Shown: one piece after another, positions 10,076-24,754 of the stretch
Numbering within the stretch: the first letter of the stretch is position 1
How the letters are laid out: every line of letters begins with the position of its first letter
From: a virus
Taxonomy: Duplodnaviria > Caudoviricetes
Length of the DNA stretch: 24,754 nt
Reading direction: 5' to 3' (one strand)
Virus record (IMG/VR): IMGVR_UViG_3300004776_000009
Span: 1 to 24,754 of that record
Notes under the pieces: generated by a model
What the model saw: the letters and a program-made list of their open reading frames with translations, nothing else
The model's database searches: none
What the model was told of the DNA's origin: nothing
Position numbers and translations under genes: made by a program

Positions 10076-10982
10076 TGTTAACATCTATGACAAATCGGGT
10101 GAGGTGGTTCAAACATTAGAGTTTAATGAGCCTCTCACCCACGTATCGGGTAGGGTTAGTAAGTCCGAATCAGGTGTTTACTACAAGGGTGCTGGTGTTC
10201 CTTATCGAAGCCAATTATCCCTTGACCCTAACCTATACCCTGTAATCAAAGAAGATGAAGTATTTTATTGTGGGTATAACGTAGCTAACCCTAACTTTGT
10301 TGGGAAGATAGGTATCTTCCAAGAGACGTATCAGCCATACTTTAGTGACTTTATTGGTTCATGTGGCCCTAAAGAATTAAACATAATCCGTAACTCAAGG
10401 GAATTTAAACGCTCATCGGTAGAAGTGCTAGATTGTATCAACTATGATGAGACTAATAAGCAATTCTATTTTGTTATGGATTATAGGTGTGGGCGTAAGG
10501 GCTACTTGTGGGGTGGACAACCGAAAGACCTATATGAATTGCTAGAGTATATGGTTACTGAAGGTTGGAACTTTCCGTGGGATAAGACGAGCATAAAGGA
10601 TATTTCGAGAGGTGGGCTAGTCTCTGATGTGGCTGACCTGTTTAGGTCAAAGGAATTAGTTCATCAGATAGGGACAGTTTACTCAGCTATCTATTCCCTA
10701 TTTAAACTATACCAACGCAGTTTCAATGAATTCACAGAATACGTTGGGGCCAACACTATATCTGATAGGCACATCCCAACACTAATTATATTCCTGTTAG
10801 AGAAGTTTGGGGTAGACACTGAAGAAGTGTTCCGTAACTCAGAAGAACAATATTTCTATAATCACATCATTGGCGACTATCTAATACAGGGCCGTAACTG
10901 TGCTTATGTTGAGGATTTTAATTATGGTGATATAGTTAAACGGCAATATATAGACAAGTTTAGCCAGAGATTAGGAGTGTAA
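10068..10982 (+). CDS. Hypothetical protein, 304 aa
   Basis: Long ORF that overlaps the upstream gene by 8 nt; no motif recognised. Confidence 0.75.
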   Translation: MHSVNIYDKSGEVVQTLEFNEPLTHVSGRVSKSESGVYYKGAGVPYRSQLSLDPNLYPVIKEDEVFYCGYNVANPNFVGKIGIFQETYQPYFSDFIGSCGPKELNIIRNSREFKRSSVEVLDCINYDETNKQFYFVMDYRCGRKGYLWGGQPKDLYELLEYMVTEGWNFPWDKTSIKDISRGGLVSDVADLFRSKELVHQIGTVYSAIYSLFKLYQRSFNEFTEYVGANTISDRHIPTLIIFLLEKFGVDTEEVFRNSEEQYFYNHIIGDYLIQGRNCAYVEDFNYGDIVKRQYIDKFSQRLGV

Positions 10983-10987
10983 GTAGC

Positions 10988-11284
10988 ATGACAACGCCAG
11001 CAGGCCCACCTCTTGTAGTTAACAACCCACACCCTCCTATTTTTCAAATAAAATGGCCTTGCGATACAACAAGCCAAGGTTCTGACGGAAGCATAGATTA
11101 TTTTGTTAAAAACCTTACTTGTTGGTACGTGGGTGGTTTACCTATTTTGCCTATAAGAGTAGACCCTGTGTTTAACAACATAATGGAAGCTGCAATGATA
11201 ACGAACTTGAACATGGGGATTTGGTTAACTCCAGTTCAGGCAACGTCTTCTACCCTTCCGTCATCAGGTTGGGGTTTGGTGTAG
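10988..11284 (+). CDS. Hypothetical Pro-rich protein, 98 aa
   Basis: AGGAG lies upstream; the ORF fills the gap between its neighbours. Confidence 0.65.
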   Translation: MTTPAGPPLVVNNPHPPIFQIKWPCDTTSQGSDGSIDYFVKNLTCWYVGGLPILPIRVDPVFNNIMEAAMITNLNMGIWLTPVQATSSTLPSSGWGLV

Positions 11285-11286
11285 AA

Positions 11287-14200
11287 ATGTTAAAAAGCCT
11301 CTTCATTTCTAATTATTATGCGTGGGTTAAGGATTATTGGACTCAGGCATTTAATAGTGCTGAAACTAATATTGAGGCTGATTTTGCTAATTTCTGTCTA
11401 AGCAGTCTGTCTGACCAAATTTTGAGAGACGATACAAGTGAAAACCAAAATCTAGTTGATGCAGAACAAAACCATTTAAGCACATATCTGGCAGTATATC
11501 AAGGTCTATTGTCTAACATGAATACTGTCAACGAACTAACATCTGCTTTGTCTGATTATCAAGAGTCCAAAGCAAATCGCAAGGCTATTTTACCTAAAAT
11601 AGATTCATTTGTAACTGTAATTAATAAACAAGCCAGTAATATTTATGACACATACCACGCATATTCTAACGTGGACATTTACCCAGACTATCGACCAAGC
11701 GTTTTAGCTGCACAAAGAATATCTACATCAGTTAAGACTTTTTTGACACAAGTTAGTCAATATGTCTCTCTATCTGAGACTGAGATTGACAACATGGAAA
11801 CCACTAAACAAGTTCCATTATCTTATCAAGATATTTTAGATAAGTCACCTTACGTCTTTGATGGAACATATAGTGATAATATAAATCACGTCTCACCCGA
11901 AGGTAATTTATACGGTCAAACAACGACAGTTCAGGTAGTTGAGCATCTATATTGGTGGACAGGGGCAGAATGGGAATTAGTCCCTGATGTTTTAGACCAG
12001 GCCGCATCTGTTGACCTATTACCTAATGGTGAAGACTTTGGAACAATATTTAGAATACCTAAAGTAAACGCAACAGGTGATGGTTATATCTATGATTATT
12101 ATTACTCAACAGGTTCAGCTTGGGTATTAATGAATGAGTATTGGGCCGTTGAGGGTGTTAGCGAATTACCTAGCCCTGGATATAACATTGGAGATTATCA
12201 TAAAGTTATTGAAAGGTCAGTTACCGTTAAGTGGGATGGTTATGAGTGGCAACGATTAAATATGTCAGAGTTTGCCGACAACATTGGGTTAGCTGCTGGT
12301 ATTGCTGGACTAACAACTAATCAGACTACATTAGAGAATTCACACAATGAATTACTAGCATCTTACCTTGGCGACACCAATACAGGTAATACATTATTAG
12401 ATGCTATTGCTGTAGAGAAAGCAGCGTTTATAGATTTACTCGATTCATTCTCTGATTCTGGTTATATTACTCTTGCAGAGTCATTTGAACTAAAGAAACA
12501 CCTTGCTGGTGTAGTCTCTGAGTCAGTGACATTAATTGCAACTGCTCGAACATTAGAAGGTTTGGTTGCAGAGTTAGACCTATCTGAATTAACGGATGAT
12601 TACTCAGAAGCTATTACAGACTTAGATACGGCCCTTGATAGTTGGGTAGATGCTACGGCTTACCCCGTAGAGATTACAGGTGCGGTTAGTTCAAGGGCTA
12701 CTATTGATGCAGCTATAGAGGCTGTTAGGGTAGCAAGGGCGGCTCTATTTACAGCTATACAAAACTCAAATGTGGATTATGTAGATGCTCAAATATTAGA
12801 GGTTGGTGGCGCAGTTTCGGATGTTCAGGATGCCGTAGACCTATATGCCAATGACGGCTATATCTCCTTAGCGGAAGCCAATGAATTAACCAGGCTTAAC
12901 GCTCACCTAGATGCTGAATCAGACGACATAATTGCAATAGCTGTAGGCTTGGCTCCTGTTCCTGAACCTAACCCCAAGAGTGCTATTACTCTTGCTAAAG
13001 AAGCATACTCGGCAGCTTTATTGGCTCTAACTAATGCCCTAACAAGCTGGACTACAAATGTTACTTATCCACTAGAGATAAAAGACCTGGTTACGACTAA
13101 AGCAGCAATGCAGTCAGCATTAGCTGATGTTGCTTCAACCAAAGCTGCATTGACTGTAGAGATTCAAGGGGTTAACGCACAAAACCTCTCAGACGTAAGT
13201 GGTGACTTGGGTGAGCTTCAGAGTGATGTAGATGATTTTTCAACAGACCTAACGCTTATGTTATCGGAAGCTAATTCCCTAACAGCTTCGTTTAATACAC
13301 TTACCATTGGATATAATAATATTGTTAGTGCGGCAGGGGCATGTGACCCTGTTGTAAACACAGATTTGATTACCGCTGCATATAACGCTTTACACTCCGC
13401 AATAGACACTACATGGATAGGGCAAGCATCTTATCCTGTGACTCTAGCCGCTGGTGATAGAGCCGCATTACAGTTATTGCTTCAAGACTATGAGGAACAT
13501 CGTTTCTTAACTGAGAGTGATATAGCCGCAGCTAATGTTGGCGACCCTACAGCAGCAATTAGTCAAGCGATAACTGACTTTAGACTATCAATATATAATG
13601 GCTTTATTAAAGGGTTTACCCCTGACTTAGAGTTGGTTTACGTTAATAAGAATGAATTAACCCTACGCCCTAAAGAGACAGGGGATTACGACCTTAAAGA
13701 GATACTAAAGAAGACTGCGGTTTTTACCTATACTCCTATATTAGACTACACAACTCCTGGTGGAGTAATCACATTAGCGCAATCAGAGATAATTGAATCG
13801 AATAACGAAGTAGGTAATCCACCACCGTATAATGTTTATCTAGCCAACCAACACGCTGACTTTGAAACGTCTATCTATGATTATCGTGGCAAGCTATTCT
13901 GCTCAAACCATACCCATAGTAACAATTACTGGGTAGATGACGATGGTGATTTCGAGGCTATACTTGTTGGGACAGTAACCACTATCCCTGAAACTATAGA
14001 TGGAATCACAAAGATAATATTTGAGCAGGGGATAAACACTTCTTTAATCAGCCAGGAATCAGATGTTAAAGAAACATTCCGTGAATATAGTGACTTCGAT
14101 TTAGAATATACTGACGAGACAACATTAACCCTAGCCCGAATATACGGCGCTAGAGGCCAAATGTATGTCCCCGAAAGCCTTTATTACCTTGGTGAGAGCC

Positions 14201-16266
14201 GAACATTAAGTAACTCTGATTGGATTATAAACGTAAGTGGGGTTGACGGGACACTATCATTAGGTTCAGAAGGCGCAGCAGCATCTACTTTATATTATGT
14301 TTATATCGGTTCAGATACAGATATCTATAACTTTAATACCTTGGCAGGGACAACACCCGATAGACCATTACACCCAGGCGAAACAGGTTATGTTGCTGGT
14401 AAAGACTTTAGACTGTCAATGTTTTTGTCTACAACAATACCTGATAACGGTAGGCTGGCCCAAACTTATTATGGATATTGGGCAAGACATATCGGACAGA
14501 TATTAACTGACGCTGGTGGTAAATTTGTCTATTCAGGTAATGTTTCAGCTATTAGACAAGCCACATTAAACCCAACATATTTAGATGGCTTGGCAGAAGT
14601 GAGTATTGAATCTGGCTCGTCTACCTCATTCAAAGTAGTTAAGAAACGAGGCACATCAGGTGTTGTAATGGTTGGGGCAAGGGGTGTTGTAACGCCTACT
14701 GCTGGCTATACAATAACAACATCTGACCCTATTTATACTTATGATGAGGAAGATGTAAACTTTGACCCTACAGACCCATTAGTTGATACGACAACCATAC
14801 TAGATACATTTATTGGAACAGAGAAATACCTCTACCTTGCTAACGATAGACCCTGTTGGGGAGCATTAGCAGGTCAAACATTCCTGTGTAATGTAGACCA
14901 TACAGCAGGTTATTTGAGCCAAAACTATCCTGGCAACAATGCAAGGTGGATTGCTACTATTAAATTGGCAGTTGGGACCAAGGGTTTAGACCTAGTTACT
15001 AATGGGAACTTTATGGAAGGTGTAGAAGATTGGGTTTCAGAAGGCTGGACTTGGGTAGAAGCAGACCGCAACGTAACCTGTGATGCAGATGGTGTTCCTT
15101 TAGAACAAGAAGCCATGACGGTTGAAGCAGGTTCAATATATGAAGTTGCATTAACAGCGTCTGGTTTTGCTTCGGGTTGCATTACACCTAAAATTGGTAA
15201 TACATTAGGAGATGCAATAACTTCAGCACAACGGAGTGTTCAGTATATAAAAGCCACTAATACTGATGTGTTAAAGATTGTTCCTGACCCGCTTTTCAGT
15301 GGCGCAGTTGATACTGTTACAGCGTTTAAGATTGAATCGGGGGCGTTTAGTGGGAATTACATTACCGATTCCATTACTAAAGAAGTTCCAGTAATAGATA
15401 ACTACGACATTGGCACAAACATCCTTTGGGATAGTGTTAAAATAATGCAAGTCATTAATGACGCATTAGGGGTATCAGGGACAACATCAGTATTAAATGC
15501 CCAAAAGACAGGTGGTTTGAACCTTAGATTAGAATACGTTAACACAACTACAGTAAGGCTAATACCCTCGTCAGGGACAGATAGCTATGTTGTGTTCCCT
15601 GACCTTTCTGCCGCTACAATACCTGCCGCTGGTATAACAATGACCGTGGCTGGAGCAGCTAACACTAGATACTATGTCTACCTATCAATAGGAACTGGTT
15701 CAGGCGCATTGAGTATGTCATCAGCAAATGCTCCGAATGATCTATACACAAAACTAGAGACATACGGGACAGCCAACATACAAGTTGGCGATATTTGTAT
15801 GACAGCTCCAAATGCCATGACTGGCGCTTGGAATGTATGTAGTAGCCATCAAGAAATTCCACTATCTTGGTCAACGGCGATAAATGCAGCGGATGTTGTG
15901 GCGATAAATGTTGTGTTGAATTTGCCCGGATTGATAGTCGGCAGACGAGCAAAAACCACGGTGACGCGGACAGGGTCTACAACATTATACGCATCGTTTG
16001 TATGGAATGTATATTGGGGGTCATATTACAACACTTGCACAGTAACAGTGGGGTCAAACTCCTGCGATGCTTATCCTGACTACGTAATCTGGCGCGGTCA
16101 TATCACAGTTGCGTTAAGTGAAGCGCCTGGTGTGGGAATAGCAGCGGGGAACCCAACGTACTCTGAAACGATATATGGTGAAAGGGTTGGGGATTACCCC
16201 TCCTGTTATGGACACGAAGTGCATATATCCGCACGTGACGGGAACTTGGTCCTAACCAGAAGCTAA
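11287..16266 (+). CDS. Large modular tail fibre/receptor-binding protein
   Basis: Likely start is ATG 11287 (MLKSLF), just after the upstream stop. Contains WxGxxW hairpin motifs, three ~131-aa helical repeats, four beta-domain repeats, a CBM4/9-like domain (DLVTNGNFMEGVEDW) and a divergent aromatic/Cys-rich C-terminus. Confidence 0.75.
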   Translation: MLKSLFISNYYAWVKDYWTQAFNSAETNIEADFANFCLSSLSDQILRDDTSENQNLVDAEQNHLSTYLAVYQGLLSNMNTVNELTSALSDYQESKANRKAILPKIDSFVTVINKQASNIYDTYHAYSNVDIYPDYRPSVLAAQRISTSVKTFLTQVSQYVSLSETEIDNMETTKQVPLSYQDILDKSPYVFDGTYSDNINHVSPEGNLYGQTTTVQVVEHLYWWTGAEWELVPDVLDQAASVDLLPNGEDFGTIFRIPKVNATGDGYIYDYYYSTGSAWVLMNEYWAVEGVSELPSPGYNIGDYHKVIERSVTVKWDGYEWQRLNMSEFADNIGLAAGIAGLTTNQTTLENSHNELLASYLGDTNTGNTLLDAIAVEKAAFIDLLDSFSDSGYITLAESFELKKHLAGVVSESVTLIATARTLEGLVAELDLSELTDDYSEAITDLDTALDSWVDATAYPVEITGAVSSRATIDAAIEAVRVARAALFTAIQNSNVDYVDAQILEVGGAVSDVQDAVDLYANDGYISLAEANELTRLNAHLDAESDDIIAIAVGLAPVPEPNPKSAITLAKEAYSAALLALTNALTSWTTNVTYPLEIKDLVTTKAAMQSALADVASTKAALTVEIQGVNAQNLSDVSGDLGELQSDVDDFSTDLTLMLSEANSLTASFNTLTIGYNNIVSAAGACDPVVNTDLITAAYNALHSAIDTTWIGQASYPVTLAAGDRAALQLLLQDYEEHRFLTESDIAAANVGDPTAAISQAITDFRLSIYNGFIKGFTPDLELVYVNKNELTLRPKETGDYDLKEILKKTAVFTYTPILDYTTPGGVITLAQSEIIESNNEVGNPPPYNVYLANQHADFETSIYDYRGKLFCSNHTHSNNYWVDDDGDFEAILVGTVTTIPETIDGITKIIFEQGINTSLISQESDVKETFREYSDFDLEYTDETTLTLARIYGARGQMYVPESLYYLGESRTLSNSDWIINVSGVDGTLSLGSEGAAASTLYYVYIGSDTDIYNFNTLAGTTPDRPLHPGETGYVAGKDFRLSMFLSTTIPDNGRLAQTYYGYWARHIGQILTDAGGKFVYSGNVSAIRQATLNPTYLDGLAEVSIESGSSTSFKVVKKRGTSGVVMVGARGVVTPTAGYTITTSDPIYTYDEEDVNFDPTDPLVDTTTILDTFIGTEKYLYLANDRPCWGALAGQTFLCNVDHTAGYLSQNYPGNNARWIATIKLAVGTKGLDLVTNGNFMEGVEDWVSEGWTWVEADRNVTCDADGVPLEQEAMTVEAGSIYEVALTASGFASGCITPKIGNTLGDAITSAQRSVQYIKATNTDVLKIVPDPLFSGAVDTVTAFKIESGAFSGNYITDSITKEVPVIDNYDIGTNILWDSVKIMQVINDALGVSGTTSVLNAQKTGGLNLRLEYVNTTTVRLIPSSGTDSYVVFPDLSAATIPAAGITMTVAGAANTRYYVYLSIGTGSGALSMSSANAPNDLYTKLETYGTANIQVGDICMTAPNAMTGAWNVCSSHQEIPLSWSTAINAADVVAINVVLNLPGLIVGRRAKTTVTRTGSTTLYASFVWNVYWGSYYNTCTVTVGSNSCDAYPDYVIWRGHITVALSEAPGVGIAAGNPTYSETIYGERVGDYPSCYGHEVHISARDGNLVLTRS
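12448..13470 (+). repeat. Three ~131-aa helical repeats in the tail fibre
   Basis: FSDSGYITLAE (12448), YANDGYISLAE (12844) and FSTDLTLMLSE (13237), ending respectively in SWVDATAYPVEI, SWTTNVTYPLEI and TWIGQASYPVTL. Confidence 0.85.
13624..15800 (+). repeat. Four degenerate beta-domain repeats in the tail fibre
   Basis: DLELVYVNKNELTL..YNVYLAN..LVGTV; DFDLEYTDETTLTL..YYVYIGS..HIGQI; EVSIESGSSTSFKV..KYLYLAN..WIATI; NLRLEYVNTTTVRL..YYVYLS..QVGDI. Confidence 0.7.
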
Positions 16267-16327
16267 TAAGTATTGTGGATTATTCTAGGCACCGAAATAC
16301 AAAAACAGGCCGAATAACGGAGGCTCC

Positions 16328-16387
16328 ATGCCATACGATAGAATGACACCCGGATACAATATAATCTCAAAATTTACAGGTGACTAA
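16328..16387 (+). CDS. 19-aa mini-ORF (MPYDRMTPGYNIISKFTGD), possible gene remnant or coupling peptide
   Basis: GGAGG lies 4 nt upstream of ATG 16328; its TAA overlaps the next ATG (TAATG). Confidence 0.35.
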   Translation: MPYDRMTPGYNIISKFTGD

Positions 16388-17556
16388 TGGCAAACATACC
16401 TCAGACAACATATAGCAATATACCAGCATACCCTCGCTCATGGTATCAAGCATCTTCAAATTGGTCTGCCAAATCAGTATCAGTGGCAGCCGACCGTTAC
16501 AAACTAACCTCACCTACTGCTATGCAAATTGATGTTAATAGCCTTAGCCTTACATCCACTATAGCTACTGAACCTGATTTATCGTTGGATGCTACATGGG
16601 ATACGATTACACCCACAGATTATACTGAAGGCGCAGCACGGGCAGGTAAAGATTTCTATATTTATGCTTGTATCGGGACAACGACAGTCCCTGTAATAGT
16701 TATTTCTGCTAATGCTACATATCCTTCAGGCTACACAGCATTAACATCACGTAAAATAGGTGGGTTTCATTGTCTATGTGCTAGTGCCGGAACGATAGCA
16801 TCATACCCACTGTCAGGATACCTCACAGGTGATATATTACCTACATCAGTATGGGACTTAAAGAAACGATGTAAAAATATAGGTTATAATAATAATGGCC
16901 TAGCATACATAGCTGAACTAGATTCATGGGCATATATTTACCTACCTTCAGGCACTTCTGGTGCCCCTGTAAGTGTCTATAATGGGACAATATTGGATAC
17001 CATAGATTGGAACACATGCGTAGACGCAGGTAGAGTAGTAGGTATGAAGCTATTTAGAGATTATGAGTTTCAAGTAGCTGCTGGATTGAGTAACGAACAG
17101 ACTAACATATATGGTTCAACCGACCCCGTTACAACTGGTGGGCATGTTGATACTGCTGGTAGACGTATGATTAGCAAGCATGGGTTGGAAGACTGCTGTG
17201 GGGTTGTTTCACAGTGGCTAGACGAAGGTAGTTGGAAGTTTGACGGTGCCACAGCACATTATCATAAGATTGTAACCATAACAGGAAATGCCGAAACTGA
17301 TACGTCCGGTAATGCAGTAGCTGTAAACGGCAGCACAGCACAAGATATCGCCCCTGCATGGGCTTGGTATAACCTACCTTTAGATAAGGGACAACTATAT
17401 AGACAAGGGACAAATGGAGACGTTAAGGCTGTGGCAGGGGGGATATGGAATGATGGGACATATTCCGGTTCACGAAGTAGATTTTTGTGGTGCCTTCGGG
17501 ATTCCGTTTATAATTATCACGGCTTCCGTCTCATCGCCCCCAACGTGTGGAGGTAA
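16387..17556 (+). CDS. Mtd-like (major tropism determinant) receptor-binding protein 1: Mtd_N plus C-type-lectin/FGE-like fold
   Basis: AGKDFYIYAC...SANATYPSGYT...SRKIGGFHC, GDILPTSVWDL, DTAGRRMISKHGLEDCCGVVSQW and C-terminal GGxWNDG...GSRSR...GFR. Confidence 0.85.
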   Translation: MANIPQTTYSNIPAYPRSWYQASSNWSAKSVSVAADRYKLTSPTAMQIDVNSLSLTSTIATEPDLSLDATWDTITPTDYTEGAARAGKDFYIYACIGTTTVPVIVISANATYPSGYTALTSRKIGGFHCLCASAGTIASYPLSGYLTGDILPTSVWDLKKRCKNIGYNNNGLAYIAELDSWAYIYLPSGTSGAPVSVYNGTILDTIDWNTCVDAGRVVGMKLFRDYEFQVAAGLSNEQTNIYGSTDPVTTGGHVDTAGRRMISKHGLEDCCGVVSQWLDEGSWKFDGATAHYHKIVTITGNAETDTSGNAVAVNGSTAQDIAPAWAWYNLPLDKGQLYRQGTNGDVKAVAGGIWNDGTYSGSRSRFLWCLRDSVYNYHGFRLIAPNVWR

Positions 17557-17561
17557 CAAAT

Positions 17562-19433
17562 ATGTCAATACTTCAGAGAATAACTACATCGCCTTCTACC
17601 TCCTATCTCCAAAATTGGTATTGGGCATCGGACCGTTTCCTACCTAAAACAGTAGTCACCGCAGCGGATAGATATACAGTCCTATCACCAGCAATAATGC
17701 AAGTTGATGTAGGAGGGACTTCGTTAACTAACCTAACACAACAAACATTGGACCTTAGCTTAGACACTAATTGGGACCACGGGCAAGGTATTGGCACATG
17801 GACTGCTAATCACGCTTATAGCGTGGGCGACTTAGTTAGACCAACTGCGGCATGGCTGGCTGACGGTGCGAATAATGCCTCCACAGCTTATGCTACTGAT
17901 AAGATGCTAAGCAATACTATACCTGGGCCTGGGGTGGTTGGCGTAGACGCTTATTATAGTGGCCAGTTTGGTTCTTATTTATTTTCTCAATCTACCTCTG
18001 ATTTATGGTGGGTGAATACGGCATATCCACACTATGTTACATATGATTTTGGGAGTGGAAATACAAAAGTAATAAGTAAGTTTAGATATTATGGATATCC
18101 AGGCTTAAGCCCTAAAACATGGGTATTGCAGGGTTCAAATGTAGCCTCACCCGGAACTGCTGGAGATAGTACAGATTGGAACAATGCAGACCCAACGATA
18201 GGGAAAACACTTTATACTGGAACAGATATTGCTAACCCAGGGAATAATTGGACAAGCTATTTTACCTTTAGTAACTCTACAGCATATAGACACTATAGGC
18301 TATACATGACAGTAGGATGGTCAGCAGTCCAAGTAATGTTTCGGGAAATCCACCTAGTATCCACACCCTCCCTAGTCTATCGTTGCTCCTCAATTACGAC
18401 AGGCATCTCAGGTGGAACTTCACCAGCATTCCCTGCAACTGAAAATGCAACTGTAACAGATAGTGGTGTCACCTGGACTGCATATCTAGATAACACTGTA
18501 GCAGTTAACCGAAAAGGTCAGGATTATTACGTCTATGCTTGCACACCAACTAGCGGAACGACACCCAAGCTACTATTATCGAAACAATCAACTTACCCAT
18601 TAGGTTATACAGCTAGTAATAGCCGTAAGATTGGTGGTTTCCATTGCCTATGTGAATATGTTGGTGCTAATACCTATGGCACTACTGCTCACTCACTATA
18701 TGGCTATGTTGCTGGTGATGTGTTGCCACAATCAGTATGGGATTTAAGGTGGAAATCAAACTCACTCATTGGCAATGTGGGCCAAGTTTATGACGCTGGT
18801 AGACAAATATGGTGTGCTATATATCACCCAAGTGGGACTAGCACCGCACCGACAATAGTATTAGGTGGGACTATACTTGACACTATAGACTGGAATAACT
18901 CAGTAGACGCATGTGCTGTGTTGGGTATGAGATTAGCTAGAGATAGTGAGTTTCAGAGTATAGCTGCTGGTAGTAACGAGAGAACTAATATTTATGGTAG
19001 TGCTGACCCTGTAACAGCCCAAGGAGCAGTTGATACCGCAGGGACTAGAATGATTAGTAATATTGGTGTAGAAGGGGCATGTGGACAGATGTATCAATGG
19101 ATTGACGAGCAGTCATACCAATTCGCTGGAGCAGCCTCACATACTCACGCATGGACGGTGGATGGAAATGCCCAGAGTAATATTGTAAGTGCCGCAGCAT
19201 CCGGTGATTTAGCCCCTGCCTGGGGTTGGCAAGCCGCTAGTGGCTCAAAGGGTTCAATCTATAAGCAGGGGACGTATGGTGATGTTAAGTTACTATCAGG
19301 TGGGTTATGGAATGATGGTTCTTTATGTGGCTCTCGTAATAGGGGGTTATTCAACTATAACCATAGATGGCATTCTGGCTCACAAGTATCCTTCCGCCCC
19401 GTAGCACGCCACATCGTGAAGGAGGTAGTTTAA
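17562..19433 (+). CDS. Mtd-like receptor-binding protein 2 with inserted CBM5/12-like and F5/8 type C (discoidin) domains
   Basis: ATG 17562 follows GGAGGT. Same Mtd motifs as protein 1. Insert: WTANHAYSVGDLVRP...YPHYVTYDFG...SPKTWVLQGSN...AYRHYRLY...VTDSGVTW. Confidence 0.85.
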   Translation: MSILQRITTSPSTSYLQNWYWASDRFLPKTVVTAADRYTVLSPAIMQVDVGGTSLTNLTQQTLDLSLDTNWDHGQGIGTWTANHAYSVGDLVRPTAAWLADGANNASTAYATDKMLSNTIPGPGVVGVDAYYSGQFGSYLFSQSTSDLWWVNTAYPHYVTYDFGSGNTKVISKFRYYGYPGLSPKTWVLQGSNVASPGTAGDSTDWNNADPTIGKTLYTGTDIANPGNNWTSYFTFSNSTAYRHYRLYMTVGWSAVQVMFREIHLVSTPSLVYRCSSITTGISGGTSPAFPATENATVTDSGVTWTAYLDNTVAVNRKGQDYYVYACTPTSGTTPKLLLSKQSTYPLGYTASNSRKIGGFHCLCEYVGANTYGTTAHSLYGYVAGDVLPQSVWDLRWKSNSLIGNVGQVYDAGRQIWCAIYHPSGTSTAPTIVLGGTILDTIDWNNSVDACAVLGMRLARDSEFQSIAAGSNERTNIYGSADPVTAQGAVDTAGTRMISNIGVEGACGQMYQWIDEQSYQFAGAASHTHAWTVDGNAQSNIVSAAASGDLAPAWGWQAASGSKGSIYKQGTYGDVKLLSGGLWNDGSLCGSRNRGLFNYNHRWHSGSQVSFRPVARHIVKEVV

Positions 19434-19434
19434 A

Positions 19435-21237
19435 TTGAGCATGTTACAAAAGATAATAACATCAGGCACTACGCTAACATATCCTAGCATGTGGTATCAT
19501 CAAGATACTAATTGGTCGGCTAAGGCTGTAACCACTGCGGCTGATAGATATACTTTGGTTTCCCCGGATGCGATACAAGTAGATGTAGGTGGGGTATCGC
19601 TAACGCAATACTCGAAACAGATGTTGGATTTATCACTCGACACCAATTGGGACTTTGGGCAGAATATAGGGACATGGACTGCTGAACATACTTACGCAGT
19701 AGGTGATTTAGTTAGGCCGCAAGCGGCAACTATTGCTGATGGTAGTAAGAATAATAATACGGCTTATGCTACTGGTGTGGCTAATGCTAATGTAATGGCT
19801 AATGGGGTTACGATAAGTGCGGATAGTGTGTATGACACTCAGTATGCGTGGAAGGGGTTTAATCAATCAATTGGCGGAGGGGATAATTGGGGTCCAAATA
19901 ATTCGGGTTTTCCTCACTGGCTAAAATATGACTTTGGTATAGGTAAATCTACTGTGATAAATAAATTCAAATTTCACAGTTCCAATACTTATAGCCCAAA
20001 GACATTCACGCTTGATGGTTCAAACAACAACACTGATTGGACTACGCTATATACTGGGACCAATGTGGCAGACCCTGTAAGTAACTGGACACCGTATTTT
20101 ACTTTTAGTAATTCAACGGCATACAGATATTATCGCCTTCATATTACTGTTGGTTGGTCGGCAGAATGGATAGTGTTAAACGAACTCCACCTCGTCTCCC
20201 AACCTTCCCTCATCTTCCGTGCATCAGCCATCACTACAGGGGTGTCTAACTCAACTGAACCATCATGGGCTGTAACTGGTGATACAACTGATTCAGGTGT
20301 CACTTGGACTGCATATACTGATTATACTAATGCTCAGAACAGAGCAGGTCAGGACTTTTACGTTTACGCAGTTGCTCGTTCAGAAGGCAGTATTCCTAAG
20401 TTACTCGTATCAGCTAATGCTACCTACCCAATTAACTATACAGCTAACACAAGCAGGAAGATAGCTGGATTCCACTGCCTCTGTAACTCAGTAGGCACAG
20501 TAGCAGGTAACTCACTCACAGGTTATGTTACTGGAGATATATTACCATTATCAGTTTGGGACTTGCATAAAAAGAGCCAAGCAGTATCCGGCAATGTAGG
20601 GCAAGTATATAATAGCGAAACTGGTAAATGGGCAGGTATATACCCTGTTAGTGGTAGCAAAACAGCACCTACTATAGTTTATGGTGGGACGATATTAGTC
20701 TCAACTGACTGGAATGATGCTGTTGATGCAGGTAAAGTAGCAGGGATGTTTCTACCGTCAGACGCTGGCTTTCAATCACAAGCAGCAGGTAGTAATGAAC
20801 AGACTGTAATTAATGGTGCAGCATTACCCACTACAGCTATTGGCGCAGTTGACTCAGCCGGGACTAGGATGATTTCTAACATAGGTTGTGAACTATGCTG
20901 TGGGGCACTGGATTACTGGTTGGATGAACAATCATACAGGTTTGATGCAGCAACAGCGCATACACACGCAGTTACGCTGACAGGCGAGGCTGGAACATTT
21001 ACAAGTGCCGTAGCAAGTGCCAACGTAGCTCCTGCATGGGGATGGCAAGCCGCCAGTGGCTCAAAAGGTTCAATTTATAAGCAAGGTAGCTATGGTGATG
21101 TTAAACTAACAGCAGGTGGGAAAGCAACAGGAACAGCCGCTAATGCTGGTTCAAGAGGCAGAGACGCAAGTAATTGGCGCTGGGCGACAAGCACGGGAAT
21201 CGGTGTAAGATTAATAGCAAATTCAATAGAGAAATAG
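19435..21237 (+). CDS. Mtd-like receptor-binding protein 3 with inserted CBM5/12-like and F5/8 type C domains
   Basis: TTG start after AGGAGGT; MSMLQKIITS parallels MSILQRITTS of protein 2. Contains FPHWLKYDFG...PKTFTLDGSN...AYRYYRLH and C-terminal GSRGRDASNWRWATSTGIGVR. Confidence 0.85.
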   Translation: MSMLQKIITSGTTLTYPSMWYHQDTNWSAKAVTTAADRYTLVSPDAIQVDVGGVSLTQYSKQMLDLSLDTNWDFGQNIGTWTAEHTYAVGDLVRPQAATIADGSKNNNTAYATGVANANVMANGVTISADSVYDTQYAWKGFNQSIGGGDNWGPNNSGFPHWLKYDFGIGKSTVINKFKFHSSNTYSPKTFTLDGSNNNTDWTTLYTGTNVADPVSNWTPYFTFSNSTAYRYYRLHITVGWSAEWIVLNELHLVSQPSLIFRASAITTGVSNSTEPSWAVTGDTTDSGVTWTAYTDYTNAQNRAGQDFYVYAVARSEGSIPKLLVSANATYPINYTANTSRKIAGFHCLCNSVGTVAGNSLTGYVTGDILPLSVWDLHKKSQAVSGNVGQVYNSETGKWAGIYPVSGSKTAPTIVYGGTILVSTDWNDAVDAGKVAGMFLPSDAGFQSQAAGSNEQTVINGAALPTTAIGAVDSAGTRMISNIGCELCCGALDYWLDEQSYRFDAATAHTHAVTLTGEAGTFTSAVASANVAPAWGWQAASGSKGSIYKQGSYGDVKLTAGGKATGTAANAGSRGRDASNWRWATSTGIGVRLIANSIEK

Positions 21238-21251
21238 ATAGGAGATATATT

Positions 21252-21641
21252 ATGCAGGGTATCACAAACACGTGGAAATTAAATTCAAAACAGGACTTCG
21301 AGAATAACTATCAGGCTAGATTGGCTAATGGAGAGTCTGACCCACTGATTGACTACAGGCTAATATATTCATGTATGGATAATTGGTTTAACGAAACAAC
21401 CACCGAAGAGCAAATGATTATGGACCCTATCACAGAAATCGAAGTTGCAACACAGGTTGAGGTTCCTATAATTGTAGAGAATATTGAAGCTGGAGTAACA
21501 GATGCTACTCACCGAATCATAAATGGTGGAAGTGAAGAAGAGCCTGTATTCTACCAACAGATTTTACGATACGACAATAATTGTTATGCAGCATTAAAGG
21601 GCTTTACACCAGCGGAACTAGAATCAATCTTGGGCCTATAA
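21252..21641 (+). CDS. Acidic protein, probable Mtd-associated fibre assembly factor
   Basis: ATG 21252 follows AGGAG. LNSKQDFE...GVTDATHRII...GFTPAELE resembles, from recollection, small genes found after phage Mtd-like genes. Confidence 0.6.
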   Translation: MQGITNTWKLNSKQDFENNYQARLANGESDPLIDYRLIYSCMDNWFNETTTEEQMIMDPITEIEVATQVEVPIIVENIEAGVTDATHRIINGGSEEEPVFYQQILRYDNNCYAALKGFTPAELESILGL

Positions 21642-21642
21642 C

Positions 21643-21789
21643 GTGAAAACCGATTTATCGTGTCTCGCTTGTAAGTGGTATGGGCGGTGTAAGTATTACC
21701 TAAAGCTACTAACTGAGGGTGCTACACCTCCCGATGATTGTAAGGACTTAGCGGAAGATAGGATACGATGCTTACAAAAATCTGTATAG
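21643..21789 (+). CDS. 48-aa Cys-rich peptide, possible metal binding (absent from ORF track)
   Basis: GTG 1 nt after the upstream stop. MKTDLSCLACKWYGRCKYYLKLLTEGATPPDDCKDLAEDRIRCLQKSV has a CxxC-x5-C...C pattern and fills the intergenic gap. Confidence 0.5.
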   Translation: MKTDLSCLACKWYGRCKYYLKLLTEGATPPDDCKDLAEDRIRCLQKSV

Positions 21790-22379: not shown

Positions 22380-22561
22380 TAGAAACAATACTACCTTACA
22401 TCCATATTTACTTAACACGTCCGACAGTAGTTGCCGTGGATTTATTAATATTGTCTGTAGCAGTTACTTGTGGTTTGGGTATTTTTATTCTTAAACGAAA
22501 AGTTGATGCCTTAACCGGAGCAATAAGACTACTCAACGAAAGATTAGATCGTGATACCTAA
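22370..22561 (+). CDS. Small single-pass membrane protein
   Basis: VVAVDLLILSVAVTCGLGIFIL followed by KRK and a short amphipathic tail; overlaps the upstream gene. Confidence 0.55.
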   Translation: MQVIETILPYIHIYLTRPTVVAVDLLILSVAVTCGLGIFILKRKVDALTGAIRLLNERLDRDT

Positions 22562-22578
22562 CATACTTGAGATATAAT
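22551..22578 (+). promoter_or_regulatory. Putative sigma70-type promoter for the RNA/HNH unit
   Basis: Perfect TATAAT at 22573-22578; GTGATA (4/6 match to TTGACA) at 22551-22556 with a 16-nt spacer; the RNA stem starts about 10 nt downstream. Confidence 0.5.
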
Positions 22579-22587
22579 ACAATAAAA

Positions 22588-22641
22588 TAGCTGGATAGGG
22601 TAGCTCCCGACAAGTTGGAAATCTCAGCCAACTTCCAGCTA
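22588..22641 (+). ncRNA. Three-stem structured RNA, C4/CI-antisense-like architecture
   Basis: Outer stem TAGCTGGA/TCCAGCTA encloses GGG-TAGCT-CCC and AAGTTGG-aaatctcag-CCAACTT. The loop TCTCAG is complementary to CTGAGA (22651) and to TGAGA (22664), which overlaps the SD. Confidence 0.6.
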
Positions 22642-22675
22642 ATAAACAAACTGAGAATTACTATGAGAGGTAATT

Positions 22676-23491
22676 ATGGGAAAGATAATAGACATTACTG
22701 GTCAGAAGTTTGGAAAGTTAACAGTGATTAGCTTGACAGATAAGAAGAAAAACGACGGGTGTGCTATTTGGGAGTGCCAATGTGAATGTGGCAATATGTT
22801 TGAGGCAAAATCAACTCAATTAAGAGGTGGTTTTGTGACGAACTGTGGGTGTGATAATCCTAATAGGGGTAAGTTAGAAAACCAAAGATTCAGTCGTTTA
22901 ACAGTTAAAAGATTCTTTTGTATAGACAAACATGGAAAAGTAGTTTGGGAGTGTTTATGCGATTGTGGGAATATCAGTTTTGTTAATACCAGTAGTTTAA
23001 CTACGGGCAACACCAAGTCATGTGGATGTATAAATAAAGAACATCCTGGTAGGACTAAGCACAACATGAGCCATACGCCTGAATATAACTCTTTTGCCGC
23101 AGCTAAAGAAAGATGCAACAACCCCAACACTCCTAGTTATAACAATTATGGAGGAAGGGGAATAAAGTTTTTATGGGATACATTTGAGGAATTTTATAGA
23201 ACAATGGGGCCACGCCCAGCAGGGACTAGCCTGGACAGAATAGACAATAATGGAAACTATGAAAATGGTAACTGTAGATGGGCCACGAACACAGAACAAA
23301 CAAACAATGCCAGAAGTAACATAAAAATCAATATAGATGGAGTTTTAAAGACTTTAGCTATGTGGGCTGATGAGTTTAAGTTAAACAAACAGACTGTCTA
23401 TACTAGATATTCAGAGGCTAAGGATAGAGACCCTGAAATATTGTTTAGACCTTCTGTTGGCTCTAAACACAGAAGTAGGCGTAATTGTTAA
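22676..23491 (+). CDS. HNH homing endonuclease with two N-terminal Cys-rich DNA-binding repeats
   Basis: DITGQKFGKLTV...WECQCECGN...NCGC and ENQRFSRLTV...WECLCDCGN...SCGC; RCNNPN..SYNNYGGRGI; SLDRIDNNGNYENGNCRWAT. GAGGT RBS. Confidence 0.92.
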   Translation: MGKIIDITGQKFGKLTVISLTDKKKNDGCAIWECQCECGNMFEAKSTQLRGGFVTNCGCDNPNRGKLENQRFSRLTVKRFFCIDKHGKVVWECLCDCGNISFVNTSSLTTGNTKSCGCINKEHPGRTKHNMSHTPEYNSFAAAKERCNNPNTPSYNNYGGRGIKFLWDTFEEFYRTMGPRPAGTSLDRIDNNGNYENGNCRWATNTEQTNNARSNIKINIDGVLKTLAMWADEFKLNKQTVYTRYSEAKDRDPEILFRPSVGSKHRSRRNC

Positions 23492-24054
23492 TGATACCCA
23501 ACATACTCGAAATTGGAAAATTTCTATCGGACTACGGCATTTTTGCTTTTATTATTGTGCTATTAGCTATAGTGGGAACTTATTTCATTGGCAAGTTCTT
23601 TTTATCATTACACTCCAAGATAGACGCAGCCTCGTCAATCACCCAACAGTTAGGAGAAAGGATAGTTACCAGTAGTGGCGACCCTACTGTCCATTATACA
23701 ATATTAAAAGAAATAGAGAACGAACTACAGGAACTAAGACAAGATGCAGAAGCACACGCAGCTAACGCTAATAAACATTACGAGGATGTAATACGGCTCA
23801 ATTCACAGGAAGTATATGCCCGATGTAATATAGATAGATGTCCACATTTAGTGACTATTCGTAACCAAATAAAAGATGTGGGTAGTCTATTTGCAGATTT
23901 CAATGTTAAGGCGGAGGAATCAAGGAACGCATCAGGCGCATCCTTAAAAGACATTCAGAGTCAAATGACAACACTTGCAGCAGAGGTCTCAGCACAATCT
24001 AAACAAGTGGTTCAACTGTTAGGAGACGTGCTTGTGGGGCGCAAAACCAAATGA
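23491..24054 (+). CDS. Holin-like single-pass membrane protein with a long coiled-coil tail
   Basis: ATG overlaps the HNH stop (TAATG). FLSDYGIFAFIIVLLAIVGTYFIG resembles BhlA/UviB-type holin N-termini. The helical C-terminus contains CNIDRCPH. The holin function is inferred. Confidence 0.5.
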   Translation: MIPNILEIGKFLSDYGIFAFIIVLLAIVGTYFIGKFFLSLHSKIDAASSITQQLGERIVTSSGDPTVHYTILKEIENELQELRQDAEAHAANANKHYEDVIRLNSQEVYARCNIDRCPHLVTIRNQIKDVGSLFADFNVKAEESRNASGASLKDIQSQMTTLAAEVSAQSKQVVQLLGDVLVGRKTK

Positions 24055-24754
24055 GTAGCACATGCGAAACACTAAAACATAATATGTCGGACAGGCACCA
24101 ATCATTGTTCGCCACGATGCCGATAGGTTGCATAGTGATTGACCTAAATGGTGATACAATTGACGTAAATCCCAAAGCATTGGAGATACTAGGCTCTCCC
24201 TCAGCCGAAGCTACTAAACAGATTAACATGCTCACGTTTCAACCTCTAATTGATGCAGGTGTTTCGGCTATTGCTATTAGGTCTCTTGGTGGTGAATCCA
24301 AGATTGTCCACGACATTTACTACACAAGCTGTTGGGGAAAGACAGCCGCCGTCAGGTTTACAGCTACACCAATCTATGATGAACAAGATTATGTGTGTTT
24401 GACGTTGATTATGATGGAAGACATGACGGATTATACCTCTTTGAAGTGCGAACTAGAACGCAACAATAAGATGCTTAAAGCCATAATTGATAATATACCC
24501 AGCATGATATGGCTAAAGGACGTTGACGGTCGTTATTTATTCACCAACAAATCATTCGATGAATTTAATCAATTCACCAATACAGACCCTATTGGTAAAA
24601 CTGATGCTGAGATATGGCCCAAGGACCAGGCTGATTCCTTTACCGTAGAGGATATATCGGTTAGAGAATGCGAGTATCTCTTAGAAAAGACTGACGCAAT
24701 TATTCATCCTGTTTACGGCCCTAAACACTATCACACTATAAAGGTGGGCGTATG
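24051..24754 (+). CDS. Tandem PAS-domain protein, 3'-truncated (absent from ORF track)
   Basis: ATGA overlap at 24051 and open to the window end. PAS1: SLFATMPIGCIVIDLNGDTIDVNPKALEILG...TPIYDEQD...IMMEDMTD. Linker: LKCELERNNKMLKAIIDNIP. PAS2: SMIWLKDVDGRYLFTNKSF...IGKTDAEIWP. Confidence 0.88.
   Translation, partial: MSSTCETLKHNMSDRHQSLFATMPIGCIVIDLNGDTIDVNPKALEILGSPSAEATKQINMLTFQPLIDAGVSAIAIRSLGGESKIVHDIYYTSCWGKTAAVRFTATPIYDEQDYVCLTLIMMEDMTDYTSLKCELERNNKMLKAIIDNIPSMIWLKDVDGRYLFTNKSFDEFNQFTNTDPIGKTDAEIWPKDQADSFTVEDISVRECEYLLEKTDAIIHPVYGPKHYHTIKVGV

Follow-up and report, generated by a model that had tools for sequence, protein, structure and literature searches.

The viral sequence analysed here, positions 1 to 24,754 of IMG/VR record IMGVR_UViG_3300004776_000009 (Caudoviricetes; "the window" denotes this whole stretch of 24,754 nucleotides), is the tail module of a phage present in freshwater metagenomes. 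Our subject is a polar bias in its third codon positions, with G/T-ending codons at the 5' side and C/A-ending codons at the 3' side of putative ligand-binding segments of the tail genes. The window holds baseplate genes, a DUF4815 protein, a tail-fibre-like protein, and three tandem genes of the Mtd family, with these genes and their tracts lying on the + strand. The fibre-like protein of 1659 amino acids (open reading frame 11287–16266; 17 homologues) is conserved to ~15860, with a hypervariable C-terminal tip beyond. PF21916, the mark of Mtd/C-type-lectin-kind target genes of diversity-generating retroelements (DGRs), is detected in all three Mtd paralogues. Mtd1 (16387–17556; PF21916 E-value 3e-20; phrog_11262) lacks an inserted domain, Mtd2 (17562–19433; PF21916 and alignment) carries an inserted F5/8-like domain and a variable tip, and Mtd3 (19435–21237; PF21916 and PF00754) carries an inserted F5/8 domain and a conserved tip without a bracket. 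Binding of host receptors by these tail domains is predicted from their family names.

The hand counts of the initial annotation all reproduce. At the F5/8 cassette of Mtd3, the 5' tract (19729–19860) has 39 of 42 codons ending in G/T between 19735 and 19860 (26 T, 13 G), and the 3' tract (20179–20238) has 17 of 20 codons ending in C/A, with 12 C and no G. The F5/8-like cassette of Mtd2 (17844–18392), with 46% identity to the Mtd3 domain, runs from a G/T excess at its start to a C/A excess at its end (18303–18392), where 13 of the 15 codons at 18348–18392 end in C/A. The Mtd2 tip (19260–19415) is C-poor in its 5' part, with one C-ending codon in 30 at 19260–19349, and closes on a run in which every codon ends in C/A (13 of 13, 19377–19415). 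The Mtd1 tip combines a G-rich run at 17425–17474 with a terminal run at 17518–17544 in which eight of nine codons end in C. In the fibre, a G-rich tract free of C at third positions lies at the border of the conserved and variable parts (15865–15924), with nine G and no C in the 19 codons of 15868–15924. The codon contrast reported upstream of the tip, caa/ggt/aaa/cta in Mtd3 against cag/ggg/aag/tta in Mtd2, is likewise present in the sequence.

Scans for significance were conditioned on the encoded amino acids and covered the window in about 40 combinations of statistic and width. The Mtd3 bracket lies beyond chance on both sides, with z = 5.2 for the 5' tract, taken as the strongest signal (19729–19854; 0 of 2000 nulls), and z = 6.0–6.4 for the 3' tract (6.4 at 20179–20217; 0 of 1000 nulls). 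The three highest 9-codon C-minus-G peaks of the window fall at 20191 in Mtd3, 17518 in Mtd1, and 19389 in Mtd2 (p = 0.002, 0.009, and 0.026 respectively, uncorrected), of which those in Mtd1 and Mtd2 fail correction for 40 tests. The other brackets initially proposed stand in part. The 3' tract of the Mtd2 cassette reaches only p = 0.06–0.07 as a run, but the slope across the whole cassette lies in the top 0.5% of windows of the same length. In the tips of Mtd2 and Mtd1 the 3' runs carry the uncorrected p values above, but the 5' runs do not stand out (p = 0.99 at a scan width W of 9 in Mtd2; p = 0.77–0.99 for the G-rich run of Mtd1). The tip tracts of Mtd1 and Mtd2 are weaker, and have ordinary partial explanations that are considered below. 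At the fibre tip the 5' tract holds (G-minus-C z = 4.8, p = 0.001), but the 3' arm is not significant and the polarity is reversed in two relatives; the C-rich tract at 16390–16440, once read as this 3' side, has p ~0.9 and sits in the N-terminus of Mtd1, 120 nt past the fibre stop.

The slope of the bias from left to right was calculated for segments picked after inspection of the window, with boundaries from protein alignments, and gives z = 4.16 for the Mtd3 cassette, 3.98 for the Mtd2 cassette, 3.47 for the Mtd2 tip, 1.53 for the Mtd1 tip, 1.44 for the fibre tip, and 0.83 for the Mtd3 tip. Because the genes of real phages are patchier than shuffled sequence, a comparison with real phage loci was also made, covering 67 loci with a minimum length of 12 kb and a GC content no higher than 50% (299,087 codons), with duplicates of the window and of G001, a complete relative, removed. 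A stronger G/T run occurs in one of the 66 other loci, a stronger C run in one of 66, and a stronger ordered pair in none of 66. The window ranks first of 67 for a G/T-then-C pair in one gene, with a score unmatched in either order.

Two further features of these genes lie outside the brackets. A cluster of NCG codons occupies the Mtd3 N-terminus upstream of the cassette (19537–19626; z = 6.9, p = 0.002), and a hairpin predicted at 17549–17604 pairs the Shine-Dalgarno sequence of Mtd2 with a C-rich stretch of the Mtd2 start, possibly as a device for translational coupling.

Variable segments and the character of the bias

Alignments of Mtd3 homologues and of the fibre bear out the proposal that the tracts mark segments differing among relatives. 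Among the best 120 of 269 Mtd3 homologues, the VRP...Y.C site is empty in P0017, P0020, P0021, P0031, and P0072, as it is in locus L021, and is filled by an F5/8-like domain in P0004, P0007–11, P0013, P0014, and P0032, by Kelch repeats in P0003, P0026, and P0029, and by a LamG-like domain in P0024. The identity of the fibre to its four closest relatives is 0.75 over 15400–15860, compared with 0.40 and 0.26 in the tip, with the G tract beginning at the border between the two (~15860). The Mtd3 tip serves as a fair internal control, as had been suggested, being near-identical in P0003, which has Kelch repeats instead of F5/8, and showing the lowest of the slopes above. Within both window cassettes the bias is highest at the edges and declines inward. 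At the level of strains, contigs of six 2017 runs differ at two sites in 15000–21700, with the reservation that contigs drop rare variants; the assembled contigs of seven runs in all gave no informative variation, the small share of X7 covering little of the tail genes. A degenerate-pattern search for DNA relatives returned 22 loci, none with a tblastn match, and a fibre-tip scan for DNA relatives returned none. GenBank phages contribute one distant Mtd, and in the 401 genomes around G007 the fibre is matched twice and the Mtd alignment, weakly, 16 times.

The strand symmetry of the polarity is confirmed, with a composition mostly of the transition type (A>G and C>T on the strand entering the segment). 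At fourfold sites of the 5' arms the share of purines is kept (40/79 against a background of 49%; 15/30 against 54% in G001), with G/(G+A) rising from 27% to 68% and T likewise replacing C. With the third base fixed, the C form is used by all eight informative Leu/Ser codons of the 3' tracts, against an expectation of 3.25, though the 5' tracts give just three of 13 (5.0 expected). The same choice at first and second positions of Leu/Ser codons follows the local skew in the F5/8 gene of G001 (rho = −0.31, p = 0.002). The bias operates on DNA rather than on wobble decoding. Furthermore, it is specific to certain genes, with a lag-1 autocorrelation of 0.09 in the Mtd genes (standard error 0.025) and 0.136 in the G001 F5/8 gene (standard error 0.035), compared with ~0 in core structural genes. 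Most skewed tracts agree better between paralogues than the sequence around them does (13/16, 7/9, 11/14, 20/21, and 22/22 identical codons against 38–48%), with the first of these values belonging to the Mtd3 5' tract, where same-residue codons are compared with those of Mtd2 and the N-terminus, core, and body give 42–48%; this elevated identity is partly a consequence of the shared bias.

Several other candidate properties were rejected. A hairpin between arms is not evident, with a fold z of −0.12 for the Mtd3 cassette, p = 0.17–0.93 for cognate duplexes, and p = 0.10–0.93 for run pairs in G001. No k-mer (k = 4–8) is shared beyond the composition of the arms (family-wise p = 0.17–1.0), and a 10-mer motif with 33 matches at up to two mismatches (17 expected) is scattered over the window with no concentration in the arms. 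The bracket is not a general property of F5/8 domains, with 47 unrelated phage domain rows, after removal of domains lacking the anchor motif or too close to an end, having mean z values of 0.2 on the 5' side and +0.4 on the 3' side.

Probable retroelement history and relatives of the locus

The initial annotation held that DGR mutagenesis does not predict such a bias, a statement that fails in the 5' half of the tips but holds for the 3' arm. In 80 Mtd relatives with a template repeat (TR) in the locus, third positions of the variable repeat (VR), or variable region, are 1–2% A and 70–79% G/T, with 61% at the 3' end. Changes from TR to VR in DGR-linked Mtd relatives number 1429 at A (814 of them A>G, the commonest), against six C>T, three T>C, and three G>A. 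The dominance of A>G and the G/T-ending variable regions mean that a DGR history predicts G/T-ending tips, and an in vivo DGR study likewise found C to be the main misincorporation opposite A (PMC12875486). Live DGR variable regions still have 40% G at their end, and none of 156 A-free DGR-type tips ends in a C/A excess. The window tips have 6, 10, and 15 A-ending codons, compared with fewer than three in 156 of 166 tips (46 tips being skipped), and are therefore not current DGR targets. Two A-rich tips outside the window, in L089 and L158, slope in the same direction (z = 1.8 and 1.4), and five tips with three or four A-ending codons have mixed slopes (−1.7 to 1.0).

No TR with adenine-only mismatches occurs in the window or in L083; such a pair is found in 105 of 230 sequences. 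Reverse transcriptase (RT) is absent from the ~31 kb of sequence available for the window phage, an incomplete record that includes the 6.5 kb downstream of the window, and from the complete G001, where family and protein searches that detected three of three positive-control DGR records returned none. An RT is present in L098, a relative with the fibre and downstream genes in common with the window, in which a single Mtd is followed by a TR and the RT at the same locus. The G-rich run of the Mtd1 tip, 74% identical over 43 nt to an orphan TR of G001 (E-value 3.6e-4), is likely a relic of a DGR variable repeat, judging from this alignment, and a DGR once active at the locus is the likely origin of some of the G/T excess in both the Mtd1 and the Mtd2 tip.

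The genome of G001 (70,181 bp, with terminal repeats) has, in locus L253, one tail gene with two tandem F5/8 cassettes, 34% identical inside, that agree at 23/24 nt of a G/T 5' arm and at all 25 nt of a C/A 3' arm. The cassette flanks form the top G/T peaks (W 20–42) and the top C-minus-G peaks (W 9 and 20) of L253, and the cassette ranks second of 67 loci for the ordered G/T-then-C pair. Regarding the earlier suggestion that recombinase, deaminase, or RT genes might co-occur, G001 encodes RecT (PF03837, E-value 1.5e-17) with an adjacent PD-(D/E)XK exonuclease (PF12705), RuvC, two tyrosine integrases, and a beta clamp, and its sole deaminase match is a dCTP deaminase.

Further observations concern these relatives. 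The orphan TR of G001 (L308:1380–1470) is shortened, lacks an Mtd target or RT, and is 87% identical over 92 nt to the TR of L098. The latter (L098:11134–11249) is itself largely depleted of adenine and, over its 5' two-thirds, close to identical with the VR, as though mutagenised sequence had overwritten it, and its leader (L098:11103–11140) shares a 10-mer and an upstream 7-mer with the G001 5' arm (L253:15860–15890), a match that carries no control and may be chance in G/T-rich DNA. In G001, a G/T run directly abuts a C/A run with no insert between them at L253:15595–15728 and L308:1035–1133, the former being a 134-nt block that is identical in both gene repeats and coincides with a contig end repeat, so that assembly may affect it. 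The A-rich tip in L089 belongs to an Mtd homologue (10100–11062) whose stretch of sequence has neither an RT nor further tail genes. A helicase-methyltransferase fusion with an intein-like region is also encoded by G001 (L309:2623–5895). Downstream of the window, a longer contig of the same phage adds 6.5 kb with PAS-domain genes, a further tail protein, and an NlpC/P60 protein. The lysis region contains two PAS-like genes in tandem (window 24051–24754 and L083:14617–16249; Pfam PAS for the first), which are also present in G001. Both L083 and other contigs depart at several sites from the last 300 nt of the window, and an HNH gene region (22381–23738) that is skipped by contigs of related phages is likely mobile.

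Proposed recombination and its alternatives

The explanation that we favour, to which we assign a probability of about 45%, is that two-ended recombination, acting repeatedly, left the tracts as a footprint of G-T mispairs, in a lineage from which the DGR has likely disappeared. This reading rests on three links: G-T mispairs yield A>G and C>T, the geometry of the tracts is that of two inward 3' ends, and RecT joins diverged DNA. Homologous recombination would replace a module between two short homology arms, with a break in the module leaving 3' tails, of the top strand on its left and of the bottom strand on its right, that would pair with a diverged donor (a co-infecting phage, a prophage, or a paralogue) and be extended inwards. 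G-T mispairs, either tolerated in pairing or made by uncorrected synthesis, would in each round shift the entering strand from A towards G and from C towards T, and whilst the arms would survive many rounds and build up bias, the interior would be replaced and its bias lost. Enrichment of G/T on the left top and right bottom strands corresponds to two 3' ends pointing inward, as in two-ended gap repair.

Two published sources lend background to these steps. In mismatch-repair-deficient Pseudomonas lines, most mutations arise where G or T serves as template for the leading strand, with uncorrected replication errors leaving the new strand richer in G/T (PMC4702332), and phage recombinases of the RecT/Red type join diverged sequences (PMC3945230). 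Divergent modules between homologous borders, by which RecET/Red exchange is recognised, are found here. The idea of a cassette-exchange footprint, as first put forward, is partly supported, by variable modules, strand-symmetric polarity, a bias acting on DNA, and recurrence around the F5/8 cassettes of G001, but not in its use of the fibre tip or, for the 5' half of the tips, in its claim regarding DGRs.

A number of observations weigh against a recombination footprint. The G001 peaks each have p = 0.07–0.08 in L253 and are not significant genome-wide, with fixed boundaries the two G001 cassettes, which are paralogous copies, reach slope z values of merely 1.38 and 1.70, and a pair in reverse order scores equally high in L253 (3.58 against 3.55). 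Slopes are reversed or absent in the fibre tips of G001 (−2.04) and L098 (−1.78) and in an internal insert of the window fibre (−2.01), as they are in the inserts of L307 (−0.74 and −1.42), and a Desulfobacterota F5/8 gene (G302) has a 5' arm only. The skew lies at or inside the cassette edge in the window and outside the cassette in G001. The 3' arms mirror the 5' arms yet are somewhat pyrimidine-rich (27/43 and 22/35) and so not purely of the transition type, and the Mtd3 and Mtd2 3' arms are not homogenised (6/13). A gradient at the protein level was rejected, with a comparison of the family's F5/8 domains and 50 unrelated domains giving p = 0.10 and the wrong sign, the window's own two domains being dropped as duplicates. 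No breakpoint, polymorphism, or donor was seen, the contigs of the six 2017 runs, from which rare variants are dropped, showing the two differences noted above. The recombination enzymes are known from G001, the window sequence not reaching that region, and polymerase error would, by our estimate, need very many rounds to saturate the sites. Two genomes supply the evidence, which is strong in the first and moderate in the second, and fibre tips provide counter-examples.

The alternative that survives best, though unlikely, is a patchwork in which relic DGR sequence makes the tips rich in G/T, local mRNA structure (anti-Shine-Dalgarno) accounts for some C runs, mosaic donors that differ in composition and chance add to the apparent bracket, and only the Mtd3 cassette is a true outlier. 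The G/T-ending variable regions of DGRs and the alignment of the Mtd1 G-rich run to a TR agree with it, as do the tracts that fall short of significance and the reversed slopes of relatives. Additionally, the C run of the Mtd2 tip pairs with the Shine-Dalgarno sequence of Mtd3, with four of five bases at p >= 0.96 in a prediction that has no shuffle control. It leaves unexplained, however, the slopes of both window F5/8 cassettes, the same polarity in the G001 arms, the gene-specific autocorrelation, and a C/A excess that ends none of the A-free DGR-type tips.

Selection for signals is rather improbable as the source of the skew; here inverted G/T-rich arms would load recombinase, or form G-quadruplex or Chi-like sites, and so steer breaks into module replacement. 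The polarity fits convergent Chi-type sites. Four GG runs fall within 28 nt in nine of 15 arms, but such clusters are about equally common in arm-wise shuffles. A 10-mer at 20198–20207 recurs in the G001 3' arm in a different reading frame, but no k-mer is shared among the arms. T rises along with G at an unchanged purine share, unlike selection for G. The conversion locus vls of Borrelia is marked by G-runs, although on one strand throughout (PMC3585125). For a preference of RecA for GT-rich DNA our literature search found no paper.

Deamination of single-stranded recombination tails (C>U and A>I; top strand left of the break, bottom strand right of it) predicts the same two transitions with the same polarity, and resection exposes exactly these strands. 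Exposure should nevertheless be highest by the break in the middle of a cassette, the opposite of what is seen within both window cassettes. Furthermore, A>G matches C>T in strength, although deamination, when spontaneous, falls mainly on C (PMC4702332), and the dCTP deaminase of G001 is its only match of this kind. Deamination is therefore an improbable source of the bias.

Direction of these segments by a remote RT, whose DGR would lie in the host or in another part of the phage genome, is highly improbable. Mtd, TR, and RT stand together at this locus in the close relative L098, G001 retains its orphan TR, and the available sequence of the window phage covers only part of the genome. No TR/VR pair or RT is found, however, in the window and the 6.5 kb beyond it, nor an RT in G001, and the A-ending codons of the tips are at odds with TR-to-VR changes that lie nearly all at A. 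Tuning of translation rate, in which wobble-read G/T and Watson-Crick-read C/A codons, the wobble split of minimal tRNA sets, would pace the folding of inserted domains at whose borders the tracts lie, can hardly be maintained against a bias that, at a fixed third base, also reaches the first two positions of the codon, and against the lack of a bracket in 47 unrelated F5/8 domains.

Comparison with known systems and implications

The likely recombination machinery is known, and its footprint appears undescribed, a full-text search of incomplete coverage that excluded supplements having found no account of G/T and C/A tracts that converge on receptor-binding modules. The closest parallel is exchange by Rad52-like phage recombinases (Red-beta, RecT, Erf; PMC3945230), with G001, a phage of temperate type, possessing RecT, an adjacent exonuclease, and RuvC, and with diverged modules lying between short conserved arms. 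The bias here is, however, confined to accessory tail genes, and the literature search found no strand-symmetric G/T footprint for such exchange, in so far as the sources were available. DGRs, as described for the Mtd/TR/RT system of BPP-1 (PMC12875486), are approached by the Mtd-family targets, the Mtd-TR-RT order of L098, the G/T-ending variable regions, and the Mtd1 tip as a likely VR relic. In contrast to DGRs, the sequence examined here has no TR or RT, adenines are retained, C>T and a 3' arm of opposite strand are not DGR products, and whole domains of ~500 nt differ, with indels.

Gene conversion at Borrelia vlsE (PMC3585125) and Neisseria pilE (10.64898/2026.06.30.735570) likewise concerns a variable segment between constant regions, with G-biased, strand-specific DNA. 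Here, in contrast, no silent donor array was found (besides Mtd2 and Mtd3 there is no donor cassette in the window or L083, and the F5/8 matches of G001 number just two, each within an open frame), the skew changes strand from one side to the other, and T is enriched too. The keto skew of replication strands, as set out in PMC4702332, involves the same two transitions and a continuously synthesised strand rich in G/T, such that converging synthesis would give G/T and then C/A; however, the tracts here span 30–150 nt within genes rather than replichores, and are linked to variable modules. Bracketing inverted sites, as in shufflons and other site-specific inversions, were not found in the window, with none among the 25 longest of 46 inverted-repeat pairs, although G001 does encode two tyrosine integrases.

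The locus can be set out as a series, from Mtd with an intact DGR in L098, through G001, where an orphan TR and a tandem pair of F5/8 cassettes occur without any Mtd, to the window, with three Mtd paralogues, cassettes, and no DGR seen. A bolder and distinctly doubtful extension holds that the DGR was traded for RT-free, recombinase-driven swapping of whole receptor-binding domains (F5/8, Kelch, LamG, and Mtd tips) between wobble-tolerant arms, with the inverted G/T arms being both footprint and targeting device, usable to find such sites from sequence alone. Should the tracts be a recombination footprint, a single genome would record where and in which direction recombination has repeatedly acted, converging G/T-to-C/A tracts would offer a scan for hidden hot spots of module exchange in phage tails, and the locus would show a possible sequel to the loss of a DGR.

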